From contig JBEKPY010000032.1 in assembly GCA_049520275.1 (NCBI GenBank), positions 26,277 through 90,276 on the forward strand: DNA of 64,000 nucleotides, written 5' to 3'. Position 1 is the first letter of the stretch. Each line of letters starts with the position of its first letter. A model generated the notes under the pieces. The model made no database searches. It saw nothing but the letters and a program-made list of their open reading frames with translations, and was not told where the DNA came from. Positions 8,896-56,948 of the stretch are shown here, in pieces. The position numbers and the translations under genes are program-made. This stretch comes from Bryobacteraceae bacterium (lineage in GTDB: Bacteria > Acidobacteriota > Terriglobia > Bryobacterales > Bryobacteraceae).

Positions 8896-11800
8896 GGGGT
8901 CTTTCCTCTCGACTTTGTGTGAAATGCCAGATCGATTGCCACTTTGACCGTTTGTCGCGGCTGCACCGGATCGAGAGGAATGCTGTGCAGCCGGACGCCG
9001 CCGTCGTTCGCGGCGTAATTCAGAATCGTTTGGAATCCCTCGGCCAGCCGGCGCACGGTGGACTCCTGGAACAGCGAACCGTTGTACACCACATTCATGT
9101 CGATAACTTCGCCGGTGGGCTCGGCCAGAATCCAGAAGTCGGTCATTGCTTCCGCCGCGGTCGCTTCCAGTTCGGGATAGGCCTTCTCGGAAATGCGCAA
9201 GCGCCGGGAGCCGTTCTCGCGGCGAGCCAGACGTTGATTCTGAAGCGTGAATCCAACATCGAAGAGAGGATTCCGTTCGAAACTCCTCTTCACTCCCAGT
9301 TGCTCGACAATTCGATGCAGCGGATAAAGCTGGTTGGCGTGAGCTTCGAGTGTCGTCTCGCGAACTCGATCGAGCAGAATGTCGAACGGGTCGGACCCGG
9401 CAACCGTCGTCCGCAGCGCCACGACGTTCAGATACGGCCCAATCTGATTCTGCAACTCCGTGCGCACCCGTCCCGCTAAAGGCGATCCGACGACGATGTC
9501 GTCACTGCCGGTACTTCGATAGAGGAGCGTTTTGAGGACCGCCAGCATGACCATGAACTGCGACGCGCCATGGCGCCTGCCGATCACATCGACCTGCCGC
9601 GTCTGGTCCGCGCCCAATTGAAAGCGATAGGACTGGCGGCGGTATCCGCGCGCCTCCGAACGCGGTACGTCCGAAGGAAACTCGAGCGGCAGCAATTCCC
9701 CCGCCAGCTTGTGGAGCCAGTAGGTTCGCATGTCCGCTCCCCGCTCTCCGGCAAGAAGTTCGTTCAGCCATGCGGCGTAATCCTTGTAGTGAATTGGCAG
9801 CGGTTCCAGATTCGACGTCCGGCCATCGGCCAGGGCATCGTATGCCTGCTTGAACTCGTCGATCAGGATTTCGATCGATACGCCGTCGGTAACGATGTGG
9901 TGCATGGCGCAGGCGCATAGATGTCTCATCCCGCCCAGGCGGACGAGGGTCACGCGAAGGAGCGGCCCGGTCGCCAGATCCATGGCCGGGGAGGCCTCCC
10001 GTTGCAGGATGCGCACCGCTTCCGCTTCCGGATCGCCCGCGCCGCTCGCATCGAATCGGGCGGCGGCGAACCGGGATTCATCCGGGGCGAGCACCTTTTG
10101 TCTGGGACGATGCTCCAGCGCGGGAAAAACCGTTCGCAGAATCTCGTGCCGCCGGATGAGCGTCCGAAATGCTTCGTCGAAGAGCTCCTCGTCCAGATTC
10201 CCTTCGATGAGAAAGCACCCGGGGAGCATTGCGCCCTGTGCCTGGCCAGTCTGTTCCTGCACCCACAAGCGCATCTGGAACGGCGCCAGCTCATAGGTAT
10301 CCTGCCGCGCCGTGGGAAGGATCGGCTCGTAGCGGGCGCCCCCGCGGCGCGCGATTTCCCGCGCCAGACCCGCGATGGTCGGGTGAGAGAATATGCCGCG
10401 GATCTCCAGATCGCTGGTCATCTCTTCGTGAATCCGCGCCGCTACGCGAGTGGCGGATAGCGAATTGCCGCCGATCTCAAAGAAGTTGTCGAAGACTCCG
10501 ATTCTGGACTTGCCGATGGCTTCCCGCCAGATGACCGCCAGTTTTTCTTCCATGGCATCGCGAGGCGCCGCGTAAAGGGTGCGAACACCCGGATCGGGCA
10601 GCCTGGCGCGATCCACTTTTCCATTCGGAAGCAGAGGGAATTCCTTCAGGACCACAAACCGCGCCGGCGTCATGTACTGCGGCAGCCGGTCCTGCAAATG
10701 CCGGCCGAGGGGCGCCAGGACTTCTTCCTCCGAATGGTCCGACGCGACATAAGCGATCAACAGGGCGGATTCGCCTTCCTCGCGCAGCACGACAATGGCG
10801 TCGCGCACAAACGGATGCAGGGTCAGTGCGGCTTCAATCTCTCCCAGTTCAATACGGAACCCTCGCAACTTGATCTGCGTGTCGGCGCGGCCAAGGAACT
10901 CGATATTGCCGTCTTCGCGAAAGCGGGCGAGGTCGCCGGTCCTGTACAGCCGTTCGCCTTCCTGATAGGGATCTGCGATAAAGCGCTCGCGGGTCAACTC
11001 GGGGCGATTCAGATACTCGCGCGCCAGGCCGGAACCGCCGATATACAGCTCGCCGGCGATGCCCGGAGGAACCGGTTGCAGGTGACGGTCCAGGATGCGG
11101 GCTTTCTTGTTGAGCAAGGGCCGGCCGATCGAGGGCGCCAATTCGTCATCCCGCTCCACGATCGCGCCCGTCGAATAGACGGTGTCCTCGGTCGGCCCGT
11201 AGATATTGAGCACCTGGCGGACCGCCGTCTGCCGGTAGATTCGCTGCACGATGCTGCGAAGCAGGCGTTCGCCGGCGAGCTGGAAAGTGTTGACCGACTC
11301 GGGCAAAGGTCCGGACCTCAGTAGTTCCGGCACAACCGACGGCACCGTACTGACCAGCGTTACTTCGTTGGCCGAGGGCAGTCGTGGCAGATCGAGCGCG
11401 TTCTCCGCAATGACCACCGTACCCCCGCATGCAAGGGGGACGAAGATTTCGAAGACGGATACGTCGAAGCAGACGGAAGTGGAGAACAGCACGCCTCGAA
11501 GCTGCTCGGGCGCATAGAACGAGCAGGCCCAATCCACCAGTCCGCTGAGGCCCGCCTGAGTGATGGCGACACCCTTCGGTTTCCCGGTGGAGCCGGAAGT
11601 GTAGATGACGTACGCCAGATCCTGCGGCTGCACTGTGGCTGGGGACGCCTCCGCCGGCGGGTGCTCGCCATCGACAAACACAAGCCGGGCTGCGTGCTTC
11701 GAAAGCACAAGGGCGCAGGCCCGATCCGTGAGCAGGACATCGATGCCCGCGTCGTCGAGCATCGACTCCAGCCTGGCTTTGGGGTACTCGGGATCGAGCG

Positions 11801-14800
11801 GAACATAAGCGCCACCCGCCTTCCACACCGCCAGCAATCCCGCGATCAGGTCTGCTGTCCGGCCGGCACAAATCCCCACCCTTGTCTCCCGCCGGACTCC
11901 GAGCTTTGCCAACTCGCCCGCGATGCGCATGGCTCGGTCATTGAGCTGGCCGTACGAAACCCTGCGTTCGCGATCGACGACCGCCGTGCGCTGAGGATCG
12001 CGCGCCACCTGTTCCTCGAACAGCGACAGGGCGGAAGCGGCCGACGCTGGAAGAACCGGGCCGTTCCACATTGCGGCAAGCGCCGTCATTGCCGGCTCGG
12101 ATAGCAGCGGCATGCGGGAGATGGCGGCGTCCGGATCGGCAACGGCGGCGCGAAGAAGCGTCTCGTAGATCTCAAGAAATCGCCGGACCGTCTTCGGTTC
12201 CAGGACATCGCTGCTGTAATCGCAATCGATGTGAAGTTCCGAACCCGCATCGGTGACGTTGACGCTCAGATCGAAGGCGACAAATCGAACCTCGGGCTCG
12301 GCCGGTTGCAGGGTCAGTCCTGGAATCTCCGGAAACCGGGAGACCGGCTCCAGGTTAAAGACGACGGAAATCAACGGCGACGCGCCAGCTCCCCGGCGCG
12401 GTCCCAGCTCGCGCAACAACTCCGCGAAGGGATAATCCTGATGTTCCATTCCATCGAGCAAGGTCTGCCGGCTCTGCAGCAGGAACTGACGGAACGAAGC
12501 GTCCGCATCGAAGCGGCTGCGCACCGGCAACAGGTGCGTGCAGTAGCCCGCGACACTCTGGCCCTCACGGGAGAATCTGCCAGTCACCGGAAGACCTACG
12601 ATGAGGTCGTCCTGTCCAGTAATCCGGTGCAGAAGGACGTTGAACACCGCGGTCAGCGTCGCGTATAACGTGCAGCCATGGGAGCGCGCGAGCAGGCGAA
12701 GCCCATCCGCGAGGGCGGAGTCGATACGCTGGGTGAGACGTCCGCCCCGGTACGTGTTGAGCGCGGGTCGCGCGCGATCTAATGGAAGCTGCACGGACGG
12801 ACTATCGGGCCCGGTCTGTGCCAACCAGTAATCGCGATGCGCCTGCATTTCGCGCGATTCCATCCGGTTCGCGGCCGCCGCAAGGTACTCGCGGAACTGC
12901 GTCGGCCTGGCAGGAACGTTCCTGCCCGAATAGAAGTCCGCAATCTCGCCCACTAACAGCGCCATGGAAGCGCCATCGGAAATGATGTGGTGCGCAGTGA
13001 GACTGAGGATGTGCCGGCTATTCTCACGCTGGACCAGATTCGCACGGAACAACGGACCTTCCAGCAGGTTCATCGCTTCCCCGGAATCGGGCTTGTCCTC
13101 GAGCGCAACCTTGAATTTCGACGCCGGCCAGACGATTTGTTCCCGATCTGACGCGATGGTGGTGCGCAGGGCCTCGTGCCGTTCGATGACCCGTTGAATC
13201 GCCTGCCGGAGACGATCGCGATCCAGTTCACCCACCAGCTCGACGCTCGTGTTCACGTGATACGCCAGGTTCCCGCCGCGTTCGATCTGGCTCAGCAGCC
13301 AGAGTTGACGCTGCGCCTCGCTCAAGGGGACGCGAACCGCCGCATCCACCCTGGCATCCGGAAGCCATCCGCCGCAGCGCAGCTCGGCGATGGTTTCGTC
13401 GATGGCGGCCGCGAACCTCCGGAGATCCTCCTCAGTGTGCGCGGTCGACAGGAAGCACGTGCGCCACTCCCAGATGTAGATTCCCTTCTCCAGAAGGTGA
13501 TAGAAGAACAAGTCCAGATTCGAAGAAAACTCGAACCGGAACATCGACCCGAAGTGCGCGACCCGGATCGGCACATTGCCCTCCTCGAAGGACCCGTTCA
13601 ATTGCTCCGCGAACTCAGCCGTCCGTTTGTTCAGGCGATCCTGTGTGGCGCCCTTGTCATCCAGCAGGTAGCGCAAAACGGCCCGCGCGGCCGCCATCGA
13701 AAGAGGATGCTGGCAGAATGTACCGCCGAATGCGGTGCGCTCCGCGGCGGGGAACGATCCGTCGCCGTACTGCCACATTCCGCCGTCGATGCCATCCATG
13801 AACCGTGCCTTGCCGGCCACGACGCCTATGGGCAGTCCGCCGCCGGCGACTTTGCCGTACGTGGCAAGGTCCGCTTCAATGCCGAACCAACCCTGCGCCC
13901 CCTTCGGATGAACGCGGAGGCCGGTGATCATTTCGTCGAAGATCAGGGCCGCGCCACACTCGGTGGTGATCCTGCGGAGTTCCCGCAGGAAGTCTCCAGG
14001 CTGCAGGGAGGGGTTCCGCGATTGCACGGGCTCCACCATGACGGCCGCCAACTCGCCGCCGAGCGCACGGACCTCTTCGAGCGCCTCCTCGGCGCCGTAT
14101 TCCAGCACGGCGATGTCCTCGACGGCGCCGGCAGGCACTCCCGGCGCAACCGCGACCGTTTCCGTCTTCCCGCCCTGAACGCGCGCTGCCGCCAGCGTTC
14201 CGTCGGAATGGCCGTGATAGGAATGCGTAAAGATGACGATCTTCGTGCGGCCCGTGGCCGCGCGTGCAAGCCGCATCGCGGCCATCACCGCCTCAGTTCC
14301 GCTGTTGGAGAACGCAACGCGCTGGTGTCCCGTCAACCGGGTGAAGAGGGTGGCCACTTCGCCAACCAGATCCGAACGCGCTCCGAGCTCCACGCCACGA
14401 CGGAACTCCTCTTCAATGGCTCGGTTAATAAACTCCGGCTGGTGGCCGAACAAGTGGACGCCAAAGCCCATCGTGAAGTCGACGTAATCGTTCCCGTCAA
14501 CGTCCCACAGCTTCGATCCCTGCGCGCGTACACCCACGATGGGATAGAGCATTTCCTTCGTGGAGAATCGAAAACCCACCGTTGCGCGGCTGTCCGCCAG
14601 CACCCCACGCGACTCCTGGACCATTTCCCTGGATCGCCGGGTGCGTCCGTTGTAGCGGGCCACCAGGTCCTCCAGATGCTCCCGCTGTGTCCGGCTGAGT
14701 CCCTGCGTTGCAGGCGAAACGGGCGCCCCCCAAGGCAGCAGAGGCGCGGCACGCTCCGGTGCAACAGGCGCGGCGGAAGGGGAAGGCCTGTGAGGTTCCA

Positions 14801-40759: not shown

Positions 40760-42073
40760 TCAGTTCATCAGGTCGGCGGAGTGCGGGTCAATCGCCTGGT
40801 TCGCCAGCTTTACGAAAGTCCCAAGGGGGCAGTCGAAAGTCGCATTGCCGGCGCTGCAACCGGGGATGAAGACCGGGGCGCTGGGCGGCGGCGCAGCGAG
40901 GGTCAGGGGCGTGAGATTGCGCAACTGGTCCAGAGTCTGCCCGACGTAAGAGGCCCGGACGATGTACTCGCCAGTGTTTTGGGACTGACGGAGTTGGAGC
41001 ACGAGAGCGCCGCCCGGAGAGCAGAAGTCTTTCTGATATCCCGGCAGAAGCCAGTCGAGGTGGAACAGGCCGGCTAATCCGGTGATGTCGGTGTCCGAAG
41101 CGATCAGCACGATCACTTTCGTCGACGGATTCCCCAGCGAGCCCGTCAGCGTATTCCCGGTGGCTGACTGGACCATGGATCGAACGATGTGCGAAGCCAG
41201 ATTGGAACTCTGCACTCTATCCAGATAGGGCGTGCGGAACTCCAGATCGAGGACCAGGTTAGGAACGCGAGAGGTCTGGCTAACGCCGTCGGCAGTCAAC
41301 TGGCCCCACCCGGCCGGCAGCCCATCGGCGTACTCCATAAGGAAAGGATCGATGGCCAGGGCAACGTCGGTCAGCCCTCCGAGGTCGACCGGTGCGCCGC
41401 CCGTCCCGGCTGTGACGGCAAATGGAATCGCGGTGACGTCGAACTGATTTGCCGGGGCTGCGGGCGCCGGAGTCTCGCTCGCGGGATAATTCAACAGGAC
41501 CGAGCGCGTGAGGGCGATTTCCGGGGCCCAGGCGGAGGCCAGCAGTTGCAGATTGCCGCCGACACGACCGTTCACGGCCGCAATCGCCATCCGCGAATCC
41601 AGCAGCGCGACGCCGGCGCCCACCGGATTGAACAACGGATCGATGGCCGTCGTCGGGGTCAGGGATTGGACGTTGGCCGGGGCCGCCGGGAGAAAGCCCG
41701 CCCAGAAGTGTTGCGCGGAGTCAACGGTCCGCTGGATCGCGTTGGCATGAAAGAAAACGAAGCTGGCGTCGGCGGAGTCGTTGCCGGTCAGCAGTCCTTC
41801 ATCAGTGAGCCAGAGACGGTAGTAGCCGCCGAGGATGGTCTCCAGTTTCTCACCGTTGGGGGTCAGAATGCCCGGTAGAGGGCCGACGCCGAAATCCGGG
41901 TAGTCTTGCACGGAGAAGGTGTTGAGGACGCCGGATGGCGCGACCGGAGACCGCACGTTATGACGGCCGAAAACGATCACCTGCTTGAGCTGGGTGTCAT
42001 CGACGGGCTGAGCTGCCAGCCCGAAGACGCAGACAAGAACGGGAAGGAAGAGCCGAAGGGAATGGATTGTCAT
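40760..42073 (-). CDS. Histidine acid phosphatase (branch 2, phytase/AppA-Agp-like), secreted
   Basis: 437 aa; signal peptide; RHG motif VIVFGRHNVRSP; C-terminal Cys pattern PGCSAGNATFDCPLG. Translationally coupled to the upstream paralogue. Confidence 0.75.
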   Translation of the reverse strand: MTIHSLRLFLPVLVCVFGLAAQPVDDTQLKQVIVFGRHNVRSPVAPSGVLNTFSVQDYPDFGVGPLPGILTPNGEKLETILGGYYRLWLTDEGLLTGNDSADASFVFFHANAIQRTVDSAQHFWAGFLPAAPANVQSLTPTTAIDPLFNPVGAGVALLDSRMAIAAVNGRVGGNLQLLASAWAPEIALTRSVLLNYPASETPAPAAPANQFDVTAIPFAVTAGTGGAPVDLGGLTDVALAIDPFLMEYADGLPAGWGQLTADGVSQTSRVPNLVLDLEFRTPYLDRVQSSNLASHIVRSMVQSATGNTLTGSLGNPSTKVIVLIASDTDITGLAGLFHLDWLLPGYQKDFCSPGGALVLQLRQSQNTGEYIVRASYVGQTLDQLRNLTPLTLAAPPPSAPVFIPGCSAGNATFDCPLGTFVKLANQAIDPHSADLMN

Positions 42074-42075
42074 AC

Positions 42076-43500
42076 TTAGTTCACCAGGTCGGCGGATTGC
42101 GGGTCGATTACGTGGTTCGCTATCGTCACGAAGGTCCCGAGGGGACAGTCGAAGTTGGCATTATCGACGCTGCAACCGGGGATGAACACCGGGGCGCTGG
42201 GCGGCGGCGCAGCGAGCGTCAGGGCGGTCTGATTGCGTAGCTGGTCGAGCGTCTGAGAGACGTAGGAGGCGCGGACGATATACTCCCCGGTGCTCTGCGA
42301 CTGGCGGAGCTCGAACACCAACGCGCCGCCCGGACCGCAGACGTCGGCTTCGTAACCCGGCAGAAGCCAGTCGAGATGGAACAGGCCGGCGAGTCCGGTG
42401 ATATTGGTGTTCGAACCCGTTAGTACGATCGCTTTGGTCGCCGGACTTCCCAGCGCGCCTTTCATCGCATTCCCGGTGGCCGCCTGAACCATGGAGCGCA
42501 CTATGTGGGAGGCCACATTCGAACTCTGCACTCGGGCCAGATAGGGGGTGCGGTATTCCAGATCGAGGATGACGTTGTACAAGCGGAAGGTCTGGTTGAT
42601 ACTGCCAACGGTCAACTGGCCCCAACCGGCCTCCGCAGCCGGCAGTCCATCCGCGTACTCCATGACGAAAGGATCGATAGCGCCGCCAACATCGGCCAGC
42701 CCTCCAAGGTCCACCGGCAAAGTGGTGCTTCCGGCCGCAACGCCGATGGGAATGGAGGTGACGTCGATCCTGCCTGTCGGGGTCGCCGGGACCGGAGTCT
42801 GGCTGACGGGATAGTTGAACAAAATGGAGCGCGTGAGGGCGAGTTCGGGCGCCCAGGCGGAGGCCAGGGACTGTGGATTAGCGCCGAGGCGTCCGTTCAC
42901 GGCCGCGACCGCCCTGCGGTAATCGAGCAGCGCGACTCCCGCGTCCACCGGATCGAACAGCGGGTCGATGGCCGGTGGGCTGTAGGAATTGACGTTTACA
43001 GTGGCCGCCGGGAGCATGCCGGCCGCGAAGGCTTGCGCGGTGCCAACAATGAGCGGAGTCCCATTGGCCCGGAGGTATACGAAGGCGGCATCGGCTGCGT
43101 CATTACCGGTCAGCAGTCCCTCCTGGGTGAGCCACAGTCGGAAATACCCGCCGAGGATAGTCTCATCCGTGCCACCGTTGTGGGTGAGGACGCTGATACC
43201 CGGCTCGAGGAACGCCGGGTAGGGCAGCGCGGAGAAGGCGTCGAGGGCGGTGTTCGGCAAAATAGGAGTCCGCACACCATGACGGCCGAAGATAATAACC
43301 TGCTTGAGCTGGGTATCGTCTGCGGGCCGCGCCGTGGGGTTGGACAAGCGTGGCTCGCCGGTGAGCGTGGGGCTCAGCGGCGTAGTCGCTGGGCCCATAT
43401 TGAGCGCGGGTTGTGCGTAGGCCGCCGCGCCGGCGATAATTAACGCAAGCGTCAGGCCCGCCGATGAGAGCGGAAAACGCTCGCAAACTTTTTCTGCCAT
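42076..43500 (-). CDS. Histidine acid phosphatase paralogue, secreted
   Basis: Track ORF 42076..43641. Likely start ATG 43500 (MAEKVCERFPLSSAGLTLALIIAGAAAYA), preceded by AGGAGA. RHG motif VIIFGRHGVRTP. About 55 % identical to the downstream paralogue, including the C-terminal Cys motif. Confidence 0.75.
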   Translation of the reverse strand: MAEKVCERFPLSSAGLTLALIIAGAAAYAQPALNMGPATTPLSPTLTGEPRLSNPTARPADDTQLKQVIIFGRHGVRTPILPNTALDAFSALPYPAFLEPGISVLTHNGGTDETILGGYFRLWLTQEGLLTGNDAADAAFVYLRANGTPLIVGTAQAFAAGMLPAATVNVNSYSPPAIDPLFDPVDAGVALLDYRRAVAAVNGRLGANPQSLASAWAPELALTRSILFNYPVSQTPVPATPTGRIDVTSIPIGVAAGSTTLPVDLGGLADVGGAIDPFVMEYADGLPAAEAGWGQLTVGSINQTFRLYNVILDLEYRTPYLARVQSSNVASHIVRSMVQAATGNAMKGALGSPATKAIVLTGSNTNITGLAGLFHLDWLLPGYEADVCGPGGALVFELRQSQSTGEYIVRASYVSQTLDQLRNQTALTLAAPPPSAPVFIPGCSVDNANFDCPLGTFVTIANHVIDPQSADLVN

Positions 43501-47572: not shown

Positions 47573-48619
47573 ATGCGAGTTGGACTCATAGGTACGGGCG
47601 CCATCGCCCACAAGCACGCCGAGGCGTATCGCAACATCGGTTATCGGTTGACCGCGTGCACGGACCTCCGCGAAGAAACCGGCCGGCGCTTTGCCGCGCA
47701 GTACGATTGCCAGTTCGTGCCCGCGTACGAGGAGGTGTGCCGCGATCCGCGCCTCGATTTCGTGGATGTGTGCACGTTTCCCGATTTCCGCTTGCAGCCG
47801 CTGCGGATCTGCGCCGAGGCAGGCCGGCATATCCAGGTGCAGAAGCCCATGGCCACAGATCTGGCCACGGCGCGGGTGATAGTGGAGACGGCGCGGCGCG
47901 CGGACATCCTGCTCAACGTGGTCAGCCAGCACCGCTTCGACGATTCCGTACAGTTTCTGAAACGCGCCATCGCGGCCGGCCGGCTGGGGCGGATTCTGCA
48001 AGCCGACGCGTACGTGAAGTGGTATCGCCCGGCCGCCTATTATTCGCGCCCCGGCAAGGGGAGTTGGCAGACCGAAGGCGGCGGTGCGCTCATCAACCAG
48101 GCGATCCACCAGGTGGACATTCTGCTGTTCCTCGCCGGAGCGGTGGTCGAAGTGTTCGGGACGTGGCAGATTGGCGCGCTGCACGCGATTGAGTCGGAGG
48201 ATGTTGTCTCGGCCGTGCTTCGCTATGCTTCGGGGGCGACCGGCGTGATTCAGGCGTCCACCGCCTTCTGGCCCGGCTACAGCGAGCGCGTGGAGATCCA
48301 CGGCGCCAACGGCACGGCGATCATCACCGGCGACAAGCTGACAACATGGGATGTGCGGGGTGATGTGCAGAACGATGCTGGCGAACCGGCGCCGCTCGCG
48401 CGCGAGGTCAGCTCCGGGGCCTCCGATCCGATGGCCATTTCGCTCGTGCCATTCGAACGCCAGTTCCTCGATTTCGGCGAAGCGATTCGTACCGGCGGCC
48501 GGCCATGTTCGTCGGGCGAGGAGGGCTTGCGCGCGCTGGAGCTGGTGATGTCCGTGTATCAGTCCTGCCGCGAAGGGCGCAGGATCACGCTCAATGAAGG
48601 ACCACGAAAGAATGACTGA
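47573..48619 (+). CDS. Gfo/Idh/MocA-family NAD(P)-dependent oxidoreductase
   Basis: Start MRVGLIGTGAIAHKHAEA (ATG 47573); Rossmann fold plus a C-terminal alpha/beta domain typical of the family. Confidence 0.75.
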   Translation: MRVGLIGTGAIAHKHAEAYRNIGYRLTACTDLREETGRRFAAQYDCQFVPAYEEVCRDPRLDFVDVCTFPDFRLQPLRICAEAGRHIQVQKPMATDLATARVIVETARRADILLNVVSQHRFDDSVQFLKRAIAAGRLGRILQADAYVKWYRPAAYYSRPGKGSWQTEGGGALINQAIHQVDILLFLAGAVVEVFGTWQIGALHAIESEDVVSAVLRYASGATGVIQASTAFWPGYSERVEIHGANGTAIITGDKLTTWDVRGDVQNDAGEPAPLAREVSSGASDPMAISLVPFERQFLDFGEAIRTGGRPCSSGEEGLRALELVMSVYQSCREGRRITLNEGPRKND

Positions 48620-49538
48620 GAACCCCTGGTGGGAGGTGCGGGTCCCGGCGTCCAGCGCGAATCTGGGGCCGGGATTCGACGCGCTTGGACTGGCCCTCGA
48701 GATCTACCTGACGTGCCGGTTTCGCCGCGCCGAGCGACTGCTCATTCGGGCGCTCGGCCGCGACGCGGAATCGATCCCCACCACTGCGGAGAATCTCATC
48801 TGGCAGACCGCGCTGGCCGTGGCTGCGGATACGGGGAGCGAACTGCCGCCGGTGGAGCTGGAGATCGACAACGACATCCCGCTGGGCAAAGGTCTGGGAT
48901 CGAGCGCGGCCGCGCTGACGGCGGGCGTGGTGATGGCCGATCAGTTGCTCGGTTTGCGTTGGAAGCCGCTACGGATATTGGACGAGGCGGCGCGCATCGA
49001 GGGACATCCGGACAACGTGGCGGCGTGCGTGCTGGGCTCCATCGTGGCCAGCGCAATCGACGGTGGCGGCGTAGCGCGCGCGGTGCGGCTGGAGTTGCCC
49101 AGGCGGTACGGCATCGCCATCGTCGTGCCCGATTTCATTCTGCCCACAGTGCAGGCTCGCGCCGTGCTGCCGGCTTCCTACAGCCGCCAGGATGCCGTGT
49201 TCAACGTGCAGCGCTCGGCGCTGCTGATTGCGGCTCTGGCCACCGGAACCACCAGCGCCTTTCCCGCCGCGCTGCAGGATCGCTTTCATCAGCCCTATCG
49301 CGCGCCGCTGGTGCCGGGCCTTGAGGAGATCCTGCGGCTGCGTGCCCCGGGTCTGCTGGGCTCGGTACTCAGCGGGGCGGGGCCGTCGATCCTGGTCTTC
49401 TACGAGCGCGGATACGAGAGCGTGACGGATCTCGTCCGGCAGATCTTCGCCCATCACGGGCATGCGGCCGAAGTGCTGATGGCGGCCATCGCCGACCACG
49501 GGTATGAGCTGAAGCGGATGGGAGACGCGGCGGAGTGA
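48612..49538 (+). CDS. thrB: Homoserine kinase
   Basis: VPASSANLGPGFDALGLAL and PLGKGLGSSAAA GHMP-kinase motifs; start either 48594 or 48612. Confidence 0.85.
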   Translation: MTENPWWEVRVPASSANLGPGFDALGLALEIYLTCRFRRAERLLIRALGRDAESIPTTAENLIWQTALAVAADTGSELPPVELEIDNDIPLGKGLGSSAAALTAGVVMADQLLGLRWKPLRILDEAARIEGHPDNVAACVLGSIVASAIDGGGVARAVRLELPRRYGIAIVVPDFILPTVQARAVLPASYSRQDAVFNVQRSALLIAALATGTTSAFPAALQDRFHQPYRAPLVPGLEEILRLRAPGLLGSVLSGAGPSILVFYERGYESVTDLVRQIFAHHGHAAEVLMAAIADHGYELKRMGDAAE

Positions 49539-49977
49539 TGCGCGCTCGCCGTCGTAAAGCGACCGCAGGGGCGCTCGGCGGGACCGGTCCTTCCAGATTG
49601 AACTCCTCGATTGGAATGGTGGTGCCAGGCCGAAAAGCCTCGAATAGCTCGTCGGCGCGATCGCGTTGGACGCGACATGGCGCCCCCTCCCAGTGGTGGA
49701 CCGGTGTACTCGGGTGTGCGACACAGAAGTGGGGGTGCGGGCGAAATCCCCAGAAAACGCAGAAATCCTTGCGTACTGCTACTTCAGCCTGCCCTGCCGC
49801 CACACCGACGAGGAAGGGTACCACACGACCGCGCTTTGCAGCCCAAAAGTGCCTGTATTTGCAGGGCGTCCGCATCGGCTAAGTTCGGTTGCGGCGATTC
49901 TTCCATTTCTATGTCGTGCACCCGGTGTACCATCCCGACGAGCCTGAAAGTGGGATAGGATAGACTGCCGGGGAACG

Positions 49978-50525
49978 ATGTCGTCCATCTTCATCTGTCA
50001 TAGCTCAATCGACAAACCATTCGTCCGAATACTGAAGAGCCGTCTTGAGCGGTTTGAGATTCGTGTGTGGGTGGACGAGGACGAAACCAGGCCGGGTGCT
50101 GATCGGAAGTATATCGGCCGCTATCGAAGAAATGGCCTTTCTGGGAATCGTCCTCTCCCCGAACTCAGTCGCGTCAAGATGGGTGAAGGAAGAGCTTGAA
50201 CTTGCGTTGAACAATCAGATTCAACAGGCACAAGTCCGCGTCATCTCTATTCTCTTTCGCGAGTGCGCGCTGCCCGGCTTCTTGAAAGGCAAGGAATATG
50301 TGGATTTTTCCGCTTGGAGCCGAAGCAGAAAAAACGACCATCAGAGTTGACTCGCCGGGATTTTGTGACCCGACAAGCAGAGTCATCAATCGCGACCTCT
50401 TCTCGGACCGCCTCAAGGCCGCATTCGAGGCGTACCTTGCTGAACTCCGTGCGAGCCCCAGCGATAGTGGTGTCTGGAAGAAGGCCAGGCGCAGAATCTG
50501 GTGGCTGATCCGGATGAGTGCATGA
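49978..50525 (+). pseudogene. TIR-domain protein gene disrupted by frameshift(s); lies in a lower-GC segment
   Basis: Frame 1: MSSIFICHSSIDKPFVRILKSRLERFEIRVWVDEDE. It shifts near 50090 to a frame encoding LIGSISAAIEEMAFLGIVLSPNSVASRWVKEELELA...KGKEYVDFS. Together these form a canonical bacterial TIR (TIR_2-like) fold; a further frame continues to 50525. Local GC is about 50 % against >62 % in flanking DNA. Confidence 0.6.
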
Positions 50526-50603
50526 GCGATAAGGAGGAAGAATCTCTCCTCCCGGCCCGCCATCCACTCAACCTTCCCTCTTCGCCCCTCCGCTAACACC
50601 CGC

Positions 50604-50926
50604 CCCCTACCCCGCCACCCGCTCCTGAATCAGCTCCCAAAAGGCCCGCGCCGCGTGGCTCAGCACCCGCTTTTCCGGATACACCAGCCGGATGGGCCGC
50701 TCCACGTGCAGGTCCCGCACCCGCACCTCGCACAGGTTCCCGGCGGGCCACTCCCTCGTTGGGCGACACCAGCAGCCGGTTGGTCTCCACCGTGGCATCT
50801 CAACGTCCATGCTCAGCGCCGCCCTGGCGTGCTGAAAACTCGCGAATCACAATCGCGCGGTACGGCGAAAGCACGTTTGTGGGCGATGAAGGTTTCCATG
50901 CCCAGCTCGGTGATCGGAATCTCCTC
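50604..50926 (-). pseudogene. Decayed duplicate (copy A) of the 3' ~350 bp of the LysR gene at 54646..55530
   Basis: Near-identical to 54643-55000 (ccctaccccgccacccgctcctgaatcagctcc...gatcggaatctcctc) with point changes and a ~35-bp internal deletion; encodes ...CEVRVRDLHVERPIRLVYPEKRVLSHAARAFWELIQERVAG in broken frames. Confidence 0.8.
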
Positions 50927-50940
50927 GCTACGGCGAGCCG

Positions 50941-52199
50941 CTACTGGAAATGGACCTGCGACGAAGCCTCGAAGTGCCGGTGATTCCTATACTCCAGATC
51001 TACCTTCCAGGCGCCGCCCGCGGCGTACCGAACCACAATGCTGGCGGAGACCGGCAGCAGGTGTTCAACGTCTCCAATTCGCACCCGGTCCCAGGACGCT
51101 TCCTCCTCCCATCCGCTCATCTCGAACTCTCCCGGAAACCCCGTCGCTCTTGCCTCCAGGTGGACGACATCGCCGCCAGGGTCCTCGACAAAAACGCGTC
51201 CGCTCTCTCCTGGGTAGAAACGTCGGAACTTCCAGTAGAGATCGCCAAAGCATCCATCCGGTGGCGCCACGAATTCATACACCAGCACACTCCTTCCACG
51301 CATCTGCATGCGTCCACTGAACTGGAGCGTGGTCGGACATTCCGGGTCGAAAAGCGGCTTAAGCTCGGCGCCGAACCCACCTATCCATTTGAAACCCGGC
51401 AATGCCTCAAACGGTTTGCCCCAGGGACGGCCATTCCTGGTCACTCGCTGCCGGCTGGTGCTGCTTCCCCGAAAGGTCACTTCCGATCCGACCGTCTGCA
51501 CATATTTCCACTCCCGCCCAACATCGTTACCCGAGTAGTGTCTGCCGATTTCATCCGCGACAAAATTGGGCAGGTTCGCCGCGTAATCCAGGTTGACCCG
51601 GCGTGCCTGCTCCAACTCATTCTGGTAATCCACTGAAGGACCTCTGAGCGCATTACCCTCACCCTGCGCCGGCGCACTTGTCGCGGGAAGGTCCTTCAGC
51701 CGGTTTCCCGCCTGGCGCCACGCGCGGCAGCCGATCTCTCTCGAGCGCTCCTCATCGGAAAACGGCGTCAGCAAGCGGAGGTTCTTCACTTCGAGGAAGC
51801 GATACCGTTGCGATTCCGCATCGTAGATTTCATCGATGGGGCTGCAGGTAATCTCCACCCGGTCGCCGAATGTGTAATGCGCGACAATCTCCTCCACAGT
51901 CACGTGGCCACCCTTCGCCAGCGCGGCATCGATCAGCACGCCGTCGGCAAGCCGGATCGTAATCGATTCCTGCCCGATGTGCTGCAAGCCCCCGGAGAAT
52001 ACAACGCTCCGGCGCCCTTCATGTCTGGGGGTGAGCCGGTGGTTTCCCTGAGCCCGGTCGATCGCGTCCTGCAGTCTCCCACGCCAGCCCTGTTGCGGCG
52101 TGCCGGAACCCTCACCCGGCGTCTCCTGTGCCGGCGTGTAAGCCAGAATCAGGAAACACGCAACAAACAGCCTCGGCCGCGGCAGACATACAAACATGC
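50941..52199 (-). CDS. Hypothetical secreted protein (signal peptide), no recognisable domain
   Basis: Track ORF 50941..52386. The first 62 codons are an antisense read-through of LysR-fragment copy B. Likely start MFVCLPRPRLFVACFLILAYTPAQE at ~52199. Confidence 0.45.
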
Positions 52200-52257
52200 C
52201 TGCTCCCGATGCCCCAGTCACTCTTCCGGTTTCGAATCTTTCGATACCTCCCGTTCC

Positions 52258-52379
52258 CGCGCCGCCACCCGCTCCTGAATCAGCTCCAAAAAGGCCCGCG
52301 CCGCGTGGCTCAGCACCCGCTTCTCCGGATGCACCAGCCGGATGGGCCGCTCCACGTGCAGCTCCCGCACCCGCACCTC
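52258..52379 (-). pseudogene. Decayed duplicate (copy B) of the last ~120 bp of the LysR gene
   Basis: ccgccacccgctcctgaatcagctccaaaaaggcccgcgccgcgtggctcagcacccgcttctccggatgcaccagccggatgggccgctccacgtgcagctcccgcacccgcacctc matches 54651-54772 at ~95 %. Confidence 0.8.
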
Positions 52380-52428
52380 CTGCCACGCACAGCGGCAGAA
52401 GGCCGCAGAGCGCAGCCTGGTCCGTGGG

Positions 52429-52839
52429 CTAGATGAAAAGATCGGCCGTGACCTTGAACACTAACGCGAGTTTCTTAGCCTGCTCCTTGCTGATGGAACG
52501 CTTCCCACTCAGCACCTCCGAAACCCGGCCGCGCGTGCCCAGCACTGGCAGCAGGTCCCTGGCTGTTCGTCCGCTCGTCTCCATCAGGTAGGCCAGCATT
52601 TCGTTGGGCGCAACCGGGGGCAGAGGGCGCTGGCGATCGTCGTAAGCCTGCACCAAAATCGCCATAGTCTCCAGCAGCGCGGATTCCTCCGGGGACAAGC
52701 GGTCCTCGCCCTTGCCGATCAAATGCTCCACGGCGGCGACCATACGGTCGTACTCTTCCTCGGTCCCGATCACTTTGACGACAATGCGATTCGCGAGCCG
52801 GGCGTATTTCCTGGGGTCGACGGACAGTGTAGCGCTCAT
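52429..52839 (-). CDS. HigA-family (XRE-HTH) antitoxin-like protein
   Basis: Start MSATLSVDPRKYARLANRIV; C-terminal HTH ...RTARDLLPVLGTRGRVSEVLSGKRSISKEQAKKLALVF, typical of HigA/VapI-type antitoxins. Confidence 0.6.
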   Translation of the reverse strand: MSATLSVDPRKYARLANRIVVKVIGTEEEYDRMVAAVEHLIGKGEDRLSPEESALLETMAILVQAYDDRQRPLPPVAPNEMLAYLMETSGRTARDLLPVLGTRGRVSEVLSGKRSISKEQAKKLALVFKVTADLFI

Positions 52840-52882
52840 GATTTCCACGCGGCCCGAGGATCGGCTCGTTGCCATCTACAGT

Positions 52883-53350
52883 CTAACGTTGAATCAGCAG
52901 TTGCAGAAGGAAATCTTCCGCAATGGTCTCCTTCGCAATCATCTTCCGGCTATCGAACGCCGCCGCTGCCAATTCGATGTGGGCCAGCACTTCCGTTCTC
53001 GTCCACTTCTTCGAGTTGTCATCGTCCGCCGTGTGCCGATACTGCTGGAGCCGGACGAACGCGTCCGCGACAGCCCGCAGGTGGCGGACTGAGGAGTGAT
53101 TGGGATTGGGGAACGATTTGCTGCGCGTCCTGGTGCAGGCGTCGTTCATCTTCCGATGCTCGAAGGCGCGCGCGAGGGCCGCTCGCTGGCGAGGCCTCTT
53201 CCAGTTGGCAACGGCGGCGGTGGTGAGGAGATGGAAGACCGCGTAATACGCCGTCGAAACTGCTCTTCTCAGGCTCGCCTGTCGGGGACGCTTCTTGTCG
53301 AGGTTGGCGAGAAGCTGCGCCTGCTCGATCAGATGGTCCGCGAACGCCAT
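52883..53350 (-). CDS. Hypothetical alpha-helical protein immediately upstream of the HigA-like gene (possible toxin partner; has Rx5H RTEVLAH near the C-terminus, HEPN-like?)
   Basis: 155 aa; RRAVSTAYYAVFHLL... No confident family assignment. Confidence 0.35.
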   Translation of the reverse strand: MAFADHLIEQAQLLANLDKKRPRQASLRRAVSTAYYAVFHLLTTAAVANWKRPRQRAALARAFEHRKMNDACTRTRSKSFPNPNHSSVRHLRAVADAFVRLQQYRHTADDDNSKKWTRTEVLAHIELAAAAFDSRKMIAKETIAEDFLLQLLIQR

Positions 53351-53354
53351 CGCG

Positions 53355-54474
53355 CTAAGCCCAGGCGGGTTCTCTAAGCTTCGCCTGTTCTGATTGGCTG
53401 CGGAAACTGAAATAGGCCTGAAGGCCTGATTGATCGGTCCTGGTCTCAGTCATGATCCTGTGGGATACGCGCTGAGTCACTTCCCGCAGGTTTTCGGGCC
53501 GGCTGGCCTCGTCCGTCAGAATGATGGTGAAAAATATGGAGGTATTTCCGATCCAGTCGGTACCGATATCGTAGCCGATGCGCACAACCTCGGCAGCCAG
53601 GGCCCTCGCGGCCCTTTCGACACCGGCCGCGATGCTGCGCTGGTTCACAAGACCGCCAGGGACAATCGACACAAGTTCATTATCCCGCGTTTTCGCGCGG
53701 ACTGTCTCTCGGTCGGTTCTAGCTGGGGGGCAACCCGAGGTACTGGTGTATCCACCTTGTGGCTTCCGCCTTGGCGACCTCAATACCAATGCCCAGTCCT
53801 GCTTGGCCTAGCTTGCTGCCAAGCTGCCTTAGCCAGGTTGCGGTTCGGCGCCCCAGGGTTTTTGAGCCACCGTTTGCCGAATCTTCTTTAACCGCGGACT
53901 GCAAACTTGCTATCTCAGAGTCCAGTACACCCAGACCGCTGAGGGCGTTGGCGAGTGAGGCCCAACTCCCTCGTTCGATTGTAATACTGTGGACTTGCGC
54001 GAAATCCCGCGAGGCGATCACGTTGTTCCCCCCGAAGATATACGTAATCACGCTCTGATCGACCTTCTCTTTGGGTAGCTCGTCAAAACTGTCAGTCACC
54101 AGTCCGAGATCGTCCTTCAGTTCAAGAGCAAGACGTAAGACTCTGGTTCGGATGGTGTCGATCAGCCCCACGAAAGCCGAGCCGGCGATCTCCTGCCACG
54201 CTCTGCTCAGACCGTATTGTCCTCCGAAAAAGGACCACTCATACCTGAGGGTCAGATTTGGCGGCCAATCGACGATGAAGCACGAGTCCACACCAACACC
54301 TTCGTAGGAGGCTATAGGCTGAAAGAGGATCGCCGAATCTGCGAAGTGCCTGTGCTGCTGTTCCAACACTATTGATGGTAATGGCTGGTCACTTATCTTC
54401 GATCCAAATCGGCCCACGAAGCACCCCCTCGCTATTGCAACCGTTTCTTCACGGCGTATGCCAATACCAAGCAC
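53355..54474 (-). CDS. Hypothetical protein, apparently frameshifted (two overlapping ORFs 53355..53789 and 53719..54474); lower GC
   Basis: Two same-strand ORFs overlap by 70 nt with coding-like composition; no recognisable domain. Confidence 0.35.
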
Positions 54475-54645
54475 CTGCGCAGGAGTGTCGCAACCGAGCC
54501 ACTGTCTGCAGCGGCAAGAGCGATTATCTCGTCAAGCAATTCTCTCGGTGAGCCAAGCCTGTCTGTCATCTCCCGCCCGATCCGCCCTCCCATTTCCGAA
54601 AGGCTGGAAACGCACGCATCGATTGGTCCTATTCTCAGCCTACCC

Positions 54646-55530
54646 CTACCCCGCCACCCGCTCCTGAATCAGCTCCAAAAACGCCCGCGCCGCGTGGCTC
54701 AGCACCCGCTTTTCCGGATACACCAGCCGGATGGGCCGCTCCACGTGCAGCTCCCGCACCCGCACCTCGCACAGGTTGCCCGCGGCGATGTCCTGCTCCA
54801 CGCACATGCGCGGCAGAAAGGCCACCCCCTCGTTGCGCGACACCAGCAGCCGGATGGTCTCCACCGTGGGCATCTCCACGTCCATGTTCAGCGCCACCTT
54901 GGAACGTTGAAATTCGCGAATCACAATCGCGCGGTACGGCGAAAGCACATTGTGGGCAATGAAGGTCTCCATGCCCAGTTCTGTGATCGGAATCTCCTCC
55001 AGACTGGCAAAGCGATGGCGCGGTGAAACCACGAACGCCAGGTGATCGTGGTAGATCACCAGCGACCGCAGCCGGTCGTCCTCGGGATCGTAGCTGATCA
55101 CGCCCAGCTCCAGGTCGCCGTCGATAAGCTGCCCCGGAATCTTGCTCGACAGGCAGCGCCGCACCTGCACCTTCACCTTCGGGTACATCCTGCGGTACTG
55201 CTCGAGCGACGGCAGCATGTACAGCGTGGTCGATTCGTTCGCACCGATAATCAGCCGCCCGGCCGAGTGGTCCCTCAGCTCGGCAAGCGCGGTGTCCAGC
55301 TCGCTCTGCAGATTCTCGAACCGCCGCGCGTGCTCCAGCACGATTTGGCCGGCGTCGGTGACGATGAGATCCTTCCCCGAGCGGTCGATCAGCTTCTCGC
55401 CCAGGTCCGATTCCAGCTTCGCAATGGCCAGCGAGACCGCCGGCTGGGTCCGCAGAAGCTTTTCCGCCGCGCGCGAAAAGCTCTTCTCGCTCACTACAGT
55501 GCGGAATACCTTGAGTGGGTACAGTTCCAT
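54646..55530 (-). CDS. LysR-family transcriptional regulator (intact), divergent from leuA
   Basis: 294 aa; N-terminal HTH LKVFRTVVSEKSFSRAAEKLLRTQPAVSLAIAKLE; C-terminal substrate-binding domain. Its 3' end is the template of copies A and B. Confidence 0.85.
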   Translation of the reverse strand: MELYPLKVFRTVVSEKSFSRAAEKLLRTQPAVSLAIAKLESDLGEKLIDRSGKDLIVTDAGQIVLEHARRFENLQSELDTALAELRDHSAGRLIIGANESTTLYMLPSLEQYRRMYPKVKVQVRRCLSSKIPGQLIDGDLELGVISYDPEDDRLRSLVIYHDHLAFVVSPRHRFASLEEIPITELGMETFIAHNVLSPYRAIVIREFQRSKVALNMDVEMPTVETIRLLVSRNEGVAFLPRMCVEQDIAAGNLCEVRVRELHVERPIRLVYPEKRVLSHAARAFLELIQERVAG

Positions 55531-55635: not shown

Positions 55636-56811
55636 TTGCCTGATCGCGTATACATCTTCGACACCACCCTGCGGGACGGCGAACAGTCGCCCGGTTGCAG
55701 CATGACCGTACCCGAGAAGCTGCGGATGGCGGCAAAACTGGTGGAGCTGGGCGTCGATATCCTCGAAGCCGGCTTTCCCATTGCGTCGCAGGGCGATTTC
55801 GAGGCTGTGGATGCCATCAGCCGCGAGTTCCCCTGGGTACAGGTGGCGGCGCTGGCGCGGGCGAACAAGCTCGACGTCGAACGCGCCGCCGCCTCGCTCC
55901 GTCACGCCCAGAGGCCGCGCATTCACACTTTCATCGCCACCAGCGACATCCATCTGAAATACAAGTTGCGCAAGACGCGCGAGCAGGTGCTCGCCGAAGC
56001 CGTCGCGGCGGTGGAGCTGGCGCGCCAGTACACCGATGACGTGGAGTTCTCGGCCGAAGACGCCACCCGAACCGACTACGACTACCTGGAGCAGGTGTCG
56101 CGCGCAGTGGTGGCGGCCGGCGCTCGAACCGTGAACCTGCCCGACACCACCGGCTATTCGGTGCCCGACGAATATGGCGAGCTCATTGGCCGGATGGCAC
56201 GCGCGCTGGGCGACAGCGCCATCGTGAGCGTGCACTGCCACGACGATCTCGGCCTGGCGGTGGCCAATTCCATTGCCGCCGTGCAGGCGGGCGCGCGCCA
56301 GATCGAGTGCACCATCAACGGCATCGGCGAGCGGGCCGGCAACGCGTCGCTGGAAGAAATCGTGATGGCGTTCAAGACACGGCCGGACCGGTTGCCCTTC
56401 GAGACCGCCATCGTCACCGAGTTCCTTTTCCCGGTGAGCTGCGTGCTCACCGACACAATTACGTTCGGGCCGCAGCCGAACAAGGCCATTGTGGGAGAGA
56501 ACGCGTTCGCGCACGAGGCGGGCATTCATCAGGACGGCTACCTGAAGGAGAAATCCACCTACGAGATCATTGACCCGAAGACGGTGGGCGTGCCCGAGAG
56601 CCGCCTGGTGCTGGGGAAGCACAGCGGGCGCCACGCGCTGAACCAGCGCGCGAAGGATCTCGGGTTCGATCTCACCGGCAGCGAGCTGGACGCCTTTTAC
56701 CACCGCTTCACCACCCTTGCCGACTGCAAGAAGGGCTTGCGCAACGACGAGATCTCGCACCTGCTGCGCGAGGTGTGCGGCATGGCGTCTCAGGCCGCCG
56801 CCAGCGATTAA
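55636..56811 (+). CDS. leuA: 2-isopropylmalate synthase-family enzyme (short form without LeuA C-terminal regulatory domain; could be a citramalate/homocitrate-synthase-like variant)
   Basis: LRDGEQ, HxH (VHCHDDLG) and DRE-TIM barrel motifs; 391 aa; heads the leuB-leuC-leuD run. Confidence 0.7.
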   Translation: MPDRVYIFDTTLRDGEQSPGCSMTVPEKLRMAAKLVELGVDILEAGFPIASQGDFEAVDAISREFPWVQVAALARANKLDVERAAASLRHAQRPRIHTFIATSDIHLKYKLRKTREQVLAEAVAAVELARQYTDDVEFSAEDATRTDYDYLEQVSRAVVAAGARTVNLPDTTGYSVPDEYGELIGRMARALGDSAIVSVHCHDDLGLAVANSIAAVQAGARQIECTINGIGERAGNASLEEIVMAFKTRPDRLPFETAIVTEFLFPVSCVLTDTITFGPQPNKAIVGENAFAHEAGIHQDGYLKEKSTYEIIDPKTVGVPESRLVLGKHSGRHALNQRAKDLGFDLTGSELDAFYHRFTTLADCKKGLRNDEISHLLREVCGMASQAAASD

Positions 56812-56948
56812 ATTGTGGGGCAGGCCCGTGGCCTGCGCGGGGCTCTCAGCCCCGCCTCTGCCACGAACCGAACAACCCAGTGGACGGCCTGAGAGGCCGC
56901 CGCAGGCTGAGAGCCTGCCCCACAGGGCCGGAGTTACATACTAGTCTC
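56812..56948. repeat. Cluster of GC-rich hairpins (REP-like) in the leuA-leuB spacer
   Basis: Outer inverted repeat TGTGGGGCAGGC (56815) / GCCTGCCCCACA (56905) enclosing hairpins GGGGCTCTCAGCCCC, GGCCTGAGAGGCC, GCAGGCTGAGAGCCTGC. Confidence 0.5.

Follow-up and report, generated by a model that had tools for sequence, protein, structure and literature searches.

Direct copies of a LysR gene end beside leuA in a Bryobacteraceae genome and their possible origin by homology-anchored displacement

The locus described here raises the question of how the 3' end of a single regulator gene came to lie three times in the same orientation, each time followed by different DNA. It is found in a stretch of 64,000 nucleotides (nt) from a Bryobacteraceae bacterium of the Acidobacteriota (GenBank assembly GCA_049520275.1, contig JBEKPY010000032.1, positions 26,277 to 90,276 of the forward strand), called the window below and numbered from its first letter. 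The gene is an intact LysR-family regulator gene encoding 294 aa (54646-55530, minus strand), with Pfam HTH_1 and LysR_substrate domains and divergent from leuA; the repeats lie between it and thrB. The original prediction, made from the letters of the window, had interpreted them as the product of serial integration at a protein-gene attB, the bacterial attachment site of an integrase. Our comparison with related genomes supports the first part of this proposal, namely serial insertion at the LysR 3' end, each event having left an intact gene and pushed the older end and its downstream DNA outward, but not the use of an attB by integrases, since no common core, shared insert ends or recombinase was found. 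We instead lean towards the view that the stretch from thrB to LysR is a serial, homology-anchored displacement array of three units, as in the orphan arrays of Rhs and type VI secretion system (T6SS) loci.

Three copies of the LysR gene end

The proximal copy of the repeat is the final 357 nt of the LysR gene itself (54643-54999, minus strand), and the two other copies are in direct orientation with it. Copy B (52218-52379 with its extension, minus strand) matches gene nt 763-880 over 52262-52379, an alignment that is gapless and identical at 115 of 118 positions (97.5%). Copy A (50566-50926 with an extension remnant, minus strand) is a decayed version of gene nt 532-888; over 50604-50926, 301 of the 319 aligned bases are identical (94.4%), and it has suffered a 35-nt deletion (gene nt 711-745) and four small indels. 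The three direct copies of the original prediction are thus borne out by alignment and also by independent assemblies: four contigs, assembled separately from other samples, match the window at 99.9-100% identity and together cross every junction. For example, contig L161 (related loci and contigs are given here by L numbers) covers LysR to copy B, L162 covers the helix-turn-helix (HTH) gene described below, copy B, the secreted-protein gene, copy A and the TIR gene, and L166 covers thrB, the TIR gene and copy A, so that the structure is not a chimeric assembly. Chance or artefact was considered as an origin of the copies and ruled out by 94-97.5% identity over 118-319 nt together with the agreement of the four assemblies.

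Both displaced copies continue beyond the match to the present gene. Copy B, which had been placed at 52258-52379, proves to consist of the gene match and a tail (52218-52261) forming a 14-codon extension with its own stop, and copy A is followed by a remnant of ~40 nt (50566-50603). These tails align with longer LysR C-termini, that of A with L002 and that of B with L002 and L083, two relatives in which the 14-codon C-terminal extension is still present. Judged from these alignments, the ancestral form of LysR seems to have carried a 14-residue charged extension at its C-terminus, of which the ~40 extra bases in copies A and B would be the remnant. The window LysR has lost the extension via a premature TAG, which occurs also in copy A but not in copy B. 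Among close relatives, the LysR C-terminus differs, with G, GRE, ARG, AARERGAGEESKPEA and other endings directly before the stop (regions compared: window 54646-54660, 52218-52270 and 50566-50612; L002:10880-10924; L083 and others), a variation that places recombination joints in or at the last codons.

The copies also keep a record of their history. The intact gene and copy A are separated by 22 substitutions, of which 7 are derived in the intact gene, 14 are derived in A, and 1 is ambiguous. All 7 intact-derived changes are at third positions and 6 are synonymous, whereas the 14 specific to A are spread over all codon positions. This polarised pattern indicates that the intact end and copy A are alleles that diverged under selection on at least one of them, followed by decay of A, and that copy A is no recent local duplicate. 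It resembles the gene to different degrees along its length, with 90% identity over nt 532-762 and 97.5% over nt 763-880. In four tested cases, proximal and distal copies are mutual closest relatives (90-97.5%), against at most 92%, 77% and 86% identity to the nearest sampled species, which is to be expected if donors need similarity for homologous pairing. The sharing of alleles is reticulate: the intact gene and copy A share the premature stop context GGGGTAGGGG, copies A and B share C at nt 849, and A, B and L002 share the extension tail, B keeping the ancestral extension as in L002 and L083.

Cargo between the copies and at related LysR loci

Read in the LysR sense, the LysR stop is followed after 52 nt by an AbiTii-like gene, a three-gene module and, ~50 nt further on, copy B; 20 nt after the stop of copy B comes a secreted-protein gene, which is separated by 14 nt from copy A, followed in turn by a convergent TIR gene and thrB. 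The first cargo after the LysR stop codon had been described as a frameshifted hypothetical gene. It does contain one frameshift but is no longer hypothetical, being an AbiTii-like abortive-infection gene (53719-54593, minus strand; open reading frames (ORFs) 54432-54593 and 53719-54474) that matches Pfam PF18864 in two different frames (positions 1-32 and 72-184) and PADLOC AbiTii with E = 3e-10. The toxin-antitoxin-like module beside it (52429-53693, minus strand) begins with a gene for a 97-aa protein (53355-53648, minus strand), continues with a HEPN/UPF0332 protein of 155 aa (52883-53350, minus strand) and ends with an XRE-type HTH protein of 148 aa (52429-52875, minus strand). The HEPN/UPF0332 family has more than 1400 homologues, each with a gene for a partner of ~100 aa upstream, and the XRE-type HTH protein matches the N-terminus of PADLOC PD-Lambda-2_B. 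Of the HigA-like antitoxin with a possible partner that had been proposed here, the partner survives as part of this module but the HigA identity does not, TIGR02607 scoring 18 bits against a cutoff of 47.7.

The module is not confined to this locus. The whole of it occurs with 86% nucleotide identity in L168, where the locus is unrelated, and the module or its two-gene core lies at unrelated chromosomal loci in L168:1606-2845, L170:7666-8481 and L171:7655-8467. The recurring HEPN modules are homologous from ~45 nt ahead of the first gene up to a stop codon and no further, and no gene-end repeats flank the whole module in L168 or the core pair in L170 and L171. It is therefore the LysR locus, rather than the cassette, with which the duplication is associated.

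Further from LysR, the secreted-protein gene (50941-52197, minus strand) encodes 418 aa with a signal peptide. It is not the orphan that it had seemed, since more than 430 homologues were found (43-50% identity, mostly in Bryobacteraceae); none of the Pfam families matched it, and the genomic context of its family shows no link to LysR. Beyond copy A and convergent with the LysR copies, the TIR-domain gene (49978-50350, plus strand) is frameshifted as predicted, with Pfam TIR_2 positions 1-40 and 34-111 matched in two different frames. A GC content of 50-56% had been assigned to the intervening DNA, which agrees with the TIR stretch (52%, the lowest) and the AbiTii stretch (55-58%) but not with the two inter-copy segments overall (59% and 61%, against 63% for the window). 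The GC content at third codon positions is 0.54-0.79 for the cargo (0.62-0.65 for the AbiTii-like gene) against 0.76-0.86 for the flanking core genes. Searches for RNA families, promoters and terminators between 47 and 58.5 kb gave nothing above expectation.

Homologues of the window's cargo are absent from the LysR loci of relatives except for the HTH gene in L082, where an orthologue with an internal stop codon lies downstream of LysR. L082 has a mosaic of its own there, assembled in part from pieces that the window also has. Ahead of the HTH orthologue it contains, within 10902-12442, a small lipoprotein-like gene and ORFs that look, on visual inspection, like a Phd/RelE pair and a HigB remnant; NCBIfam assigned no family to the three L082 ORFs submitted. 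A truncated donor gene was sought past the HTH stop, and the alignment to L082, the only locus partly resembling a donor, scored at the shuffle mean, with no homology past that stop.

The window is one instance of a wider pattern. Our collection contained one genome per species, so that donors of the same species would not show in it, and its loci, mostly from metagenome-assembled genomes, were examined to 10 kb downstream of LysR. Partial repeats of the resident LysR 3' end, one or two per locus, were found in at least 10 other relatives; they lie 0.6-4.2 kb downstream of LysR, all in direct orientation, are 26-337 nt long and enclose a different cargo each time. This is the opposite of duplicated fragments without intervening foreign DNA, the finding that would have spoken against the original prediction. 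The longer of these copies span gene nt 589-875 (L024/L112), 685-886 (L036) and 541-877 (L042), and others cover 807-867 (L056), 808-876 (L137), 830-886 (L109), 849-925 (L157) and 814-839 (L043); L028 has two copies (834-868 and 807-873), as does L041 (815-889, plus 690-766 at the contig end). The inserts are all 0.6-4.2 kb long and consist of cargo only, including HEC-01, McrBC with a DUF4928 restriction enzyme, VapBC, MNT, HEPN, a PIN/Xre pair and DUF433, and in L002 AbiE is among the first genes after LysR. Most of the 626 proteins encoded downstream of LysR in 80 species are singletons, and the commonest families in the first two genes after LysR are AAA_21, PIN, AAA_15 and DUF4276 (HEC-01), as counted at the LysR loci themselves. 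Most related LysR loci have differing cargo and no repeats. In Bryobacterales the LysR locus is a hotspot to which toxin-antitoxin and defence cargo has come repeatedly.

Some of these loci allow individual events to be followed. An ancestral LysR-VapBC unit that is undisplaced in L056 has been displaced independently in L024 by a 1.8-kb insert, leaving a 287-nt copy, and in L028 by a different insert of 0.95 kb, leaving a 35-nt copy. The HEC-01 insert of L042 has diverged from its counterparts in L025 and L061 as much as the flanking core genes have, and these two relatives carry the same HEC-01 pair at the same place with the LysR repeat lost, indicating that displacement events can be old and that the repeat can vanish.

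Origin of the array

Several features of these loci are those of a displacement array. The partial copies vary in length and match the adjacent gene almost exactly, other genomes less well; the DNA behind them differs from copy to copy and is often lower in GC; the displaced units degenerate; and the same ancestral unit, LysR-VapBC, has been displaced by different incoming units in different lineages. The window can accordingly be divided into units, of which unit 1 would begin with the intact LysR end and contain the AbiTii-like pseudogene and the 97-aa/HEPN/XRE module, unit 2 would be headed by copy B and contain the secreted-protein gene, and unit 3 would be headed by copy A and contain the TIR pseudogene. 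We infer that the incoming DNA came from a closely related strain and carried a LysR end plus other downstream cargo. It would pair with the resident LysR by RecA-type homology, with the conserved leuB-leuA-LysR block as the anchor, and on the other side, where there is no homology, a join of linear DNA by homology-facilitated illegitimate recombination, or a single crossover with a circle, would fall inside the resident gene. The gene would be kept intact, and its old 3' end, cut at an arbitrary point, would be pushed downstream along with its cargo. At least two such events would have occurred in the window, one with its joint at nt 532 (copy A) and one at nt 763 (copy B), and the displaced copies and part of the cargo would have decayed afterwards; neither a dedicated integrase nor an att site would be needed. 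Such a sequence of events would explain the intact gene, the arbitrary 5' cut, the lack of a recombinase or element ends, the similarity of the copies and the unrelated cargo. As to the anchor, the order leuB-leuA-LysR is conserved among relatives in a tblastn synteny comparison, and full-length LysR orthologues adjoin leuA-leuB in ~140 of the 160 LysR-anchored loci. The orthologues place the window in the Bryobacteraceae/Solibacteraceae (Acidobacteriota), the nearest species representatives having 96-97% protein identity and ~91% DNA identity.

A number of observations weigh against displacement. In 11 of 12 cases the copies cease to be homologous no more than ~10 nt from the stop codon, and in A, B and L002 the point where they part is the stop of the extended reading frame. 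This precision is the weak point of the account, as it fits a gene-restoring integrative element and requires the extra assumption that variable DNA abutted the stop in every donor haplotype. We attribute it to cargo that would be packed against the gene end in all haplotypes of a saturated hotspot, a situation that may be compared with L042, where the LysR stop and the convergent DUF4276 (HEC-01B) stop overlap by 4 nt (L042:4422-4425). A search for donor haplotypes, intermediate arrays or empty sites of the same species brought up none: every contig of the same strain has the final structure, and where exact-protein look-ups with LysR, the secreted protein, thrB or leuA found anything, it was again this arrangement. 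Metagenome-assembled genomes tend to break at mobile elements and the loci reach 10 kb downstream of LysR, so that larger, integrase-bearing elements could be missed, and the recombinase screens are of limited sensitivity.

The stop-codon precision would be readily accommodated by two or three site-specific elements, integrated one after another and each bringing its own LysR 3' end (attP), with a tyrosine or serine integrase that was later deleted or, as for cis-mobilizable elements (CIMEs), supplied in trans; homology would then end at the stop codon nearly always because the element supplies only the coding end. Direct repeats of the LysR 3' end do flank foreign DNA here with the intact gene restored, which is a hallmark of an attB, and the third-position, mostly synonymous changes between the intact end and copy A are like those of prophage-borne icd ends. 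Tandem accretion is known from other gene 3' ends and from ssrA, and metagenome-assembled genomes under-sample mobile elements. The copies themselves argue otherwise, since the 14 of the window and its relatives begin at nt 532, 541, 589, 685, 690, 763, 807/808, 814/815, 830, 834 and 849. These are at least eight different starts scattered over 320 nt of the gene (nt 532-849), with only the gene end common to all, so that the shared att core that the original prediction expected from an alignment of the copies does not emerge; moreover, the sequence at the LysR gene end differs between clades. A clustering of 5' joints (e.g. 532 and 541) was considered and dropped, because by a rough estimate ~3 of the 66 pairs among 12 joints are expected to lie 9 nt or less apart by chance and some near-coincident joints are inherited. 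When the 150 nt at both ends of 13 inserts were compared all against all, matches appeared only in the inherited L028/L056 pair, leaving no arm sequences common to insert ends. As the original prediction had noted for the island, no recombinase was found between 49540 and 54645, nor elsewhere in the 64-kb window, and a motif search and jackhmmer over all ORFs of 167 loci and the window detected none downstream of LysR (~165 loci). The sole recombinases detected in the 167 loci are two or three tandem tyrosine-recombinase ORFs matching Pfam Phage_integrase at L028:2476-5392, beyond leuB and thus on the opposite side from the hotspot, and their detection serves as a positive control. Pfam family counts for 371 downstream proteins, in an output that omits families matching a single protein, contained no Phage_integrase family with two or more members. 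Viral contigs encoded no LysR relative and contained no LysR-end 21-mer, and two further observations count against integrase-borne elements: the inserts are all small and cargo-only, and the cargo cassettes occur elsewhere without such repeats. Decayed elements at this single locus are possible, but they are not the most economical explanation of the family-wide pattern, and we regard site-specific integration as a rather unlikely origin of the array.

An origin within the genome, in which unequal crossing-over or template switching made tandem partial copies, cassettes were inserted or swapped later, and gene conversion homogenised the copies, would account for copies that are closer to each other than to any other genome and for alleles common to several of them, and the uneven identity along copy A would fit conversion patches. 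Tandem duplication should, however, repeat the downstream DNA too, yet the cargos of the units are unrelated; the premature TAG of the intact copy, absent from the intermediate copy B, calls for extra conversion steps; and it is left unexplained why cargo always lands between copies in at least 10 lineages, all of which makes this origin improbable. The precise 3' boundary at the stop codon across lineages, the recurrent use of the locus and cassettes that comprise one to three cargo genes and nothing else, sharply delimited at gene ends, could alternatively reflect an unrecognised dedicated insertion system, encoded elsewhere in the genome and capturing cassettes at the LysR stop codon in the manner of an integron platform. 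In a related form, the LysR stop region would be an integron-like capture site without intI for promoter-carrying toxin-antitoxin and defence cassettes, served by a recombination function encoded elsewhere in Bryobacterales genomes, the LysR copies being by-products. The integron hallmarks sought at the locus, an integrase and a conserved site shared by cassette ends, were both absent; the cassette ends have no shared motif or structure, the LysR-end nucleotide sequence varies between clades, the same cassette is found at other loci without a LysR fragment, and no candidate enzyme was identified. We consider the integron-like site very improbable and the dedicated system encoded elsewhere the most improbable of these explanations.

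Neighbouring features and known systems

The array is bordered by core genes. On the anchor side lies leuA (55636-56811, plus strand; HMGL-like Pfam domain, tblastn synteny table), and at the far side of the stack lies thrB, encoding homoserine kinase (48594-49538, plus strand; GHMP kinase Pfam domains). thrB had no match in the 160 LysR-anchored loci, each covered to 10 kb from LysR, which leaves the far boundary of the stack without a comparative landmark. Between leuA and leuB, ARAGORN called an 83-nt tRNA-Glu(CTC) (56847-56929, minus strand), which overlaps a 47-nt imperfect palindrome with arms at 56814-56860 and 56878-56924. Rfam at its gathering threshold reported no tRNA at 56847-56929, and the feature is probably an intergenic palindrome resembling repetitive extragenic palindromic elements rather than a tRNA; in L017, a short repeated element is found in spacers equivalent to the leuA-leuB region. 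Elsewhere in the window, 40762-43332 contains two tandem paralogous units ~1.3 kb apart that are 72-81% identical over most of their length. Repeated motifs of 84-101 nt with 68-73% identity occur at a spacing of 3-6 kb (1531-1614, 6034-6117 and 11550-11633; also 16309, 19321 and 25651), and their sequence suggests a conserved enzyme-domain motif in a multi-module or multi-paralogue enzyme cluster that may occupy the first 26 kb.

If displacement is the right reading, a process described mainly for the polymorphic toxins of Rhs, contact-dependent inhibition (CDI) and T6SS loci extends to an ordinary regulator gene, here in a toxin-antitoxin and defence hotspot of an abundant, largely uncultivated soil phylum. 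The leftover gene-end copies would be a record of the order of acquisition and of the alleles involved, by which the integrase-free gain of defence cassettes could be traced in metagenomes. The locus also calls for caution in annotation, because direct repeats of gene 3' ends are routinely taken as att sites, whereas the other hallmarks of such sites were missing in every instance that we examined.

The closest parallels are found among loci that grow by displacement. In Rhs C-terminal displacement, partial cores that vary in length and closely match the upstream gene have low-GC DNA behind them and degenerate; homologous recombination with an incoming DNA that bears a partial core and may be circular has been proposed as the mechanism (Jackson et al. 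2009, PMC2935791). The LysR locus shares with Rhs/CDI orphan arrays an intact gene followed by direct partial copies of its own 3' or core region, each with different DNA of lower GC, and frameshifts. It differs in that LysR is a transcription regulator and its host an acidobacterium, and in that the cargo consists of separate genes and not of in-frame toxin tips with immunity, only the last 1-14 LysR codons being changed. Indeed, the cargo genes in the window and its relatives are separate ORFs, some on the opposite strand, and no in-frame alternative C-terminal tips were seen. In Vibrio cholerae, T6SS effector-immunity arrays have been explained by sequential displacement through homology-facilitated illegitimate recombination (Kirchberger et al. 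2017, PMC5361080). There too, the anchor is a conserved gene upstream, older modules are shifted downstream as new ones arrive, and no integrase takes part; replacement also appears to be commoner than stacking, as most LysR loci are without repeats. The difference is that Vibrio retains immunity genes of obvious selective value, whereas the LysR locus retains pseudogenes and LysR fragments.

Integrases acting at gene 3' ends provide a second point of reference. The prophage e14 and phage 21 integrate in icd, and the prophage-borne icd ends carry synonymous changes. Tandem accretion is reported for ICESt1 and CIMEs in fda (PMC7563491) and for the ssrA islands of Dehalococcoides (PMC3146451). 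Such systems have in common with the LysR locus the flanking direct repeats, the restoration of the gene by an incoming copy, serial arrays and synonymous differences, but they possess a recombinase, a fixed core or crossover site and conserved ends, all three of which were sought at LysR and not found. A further relation is to the hotspots between core genes that house defence and toxin-antitoxin genes, and to minimal mobile elements, which are exchanged by flanking homology and are usually described as clean replacements. The LysR locus resembles these in its hypervariable content beside a conserved block, its toxin-antitoxin and defence genes and its lack of mobility genes, and it differs from them in that some events, a minority, have left behind datable partial copies of the gene used as anchor. 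Together, these comparisons show a locus that works like the displacement arrays but is not a polymorphic-toxin locus.

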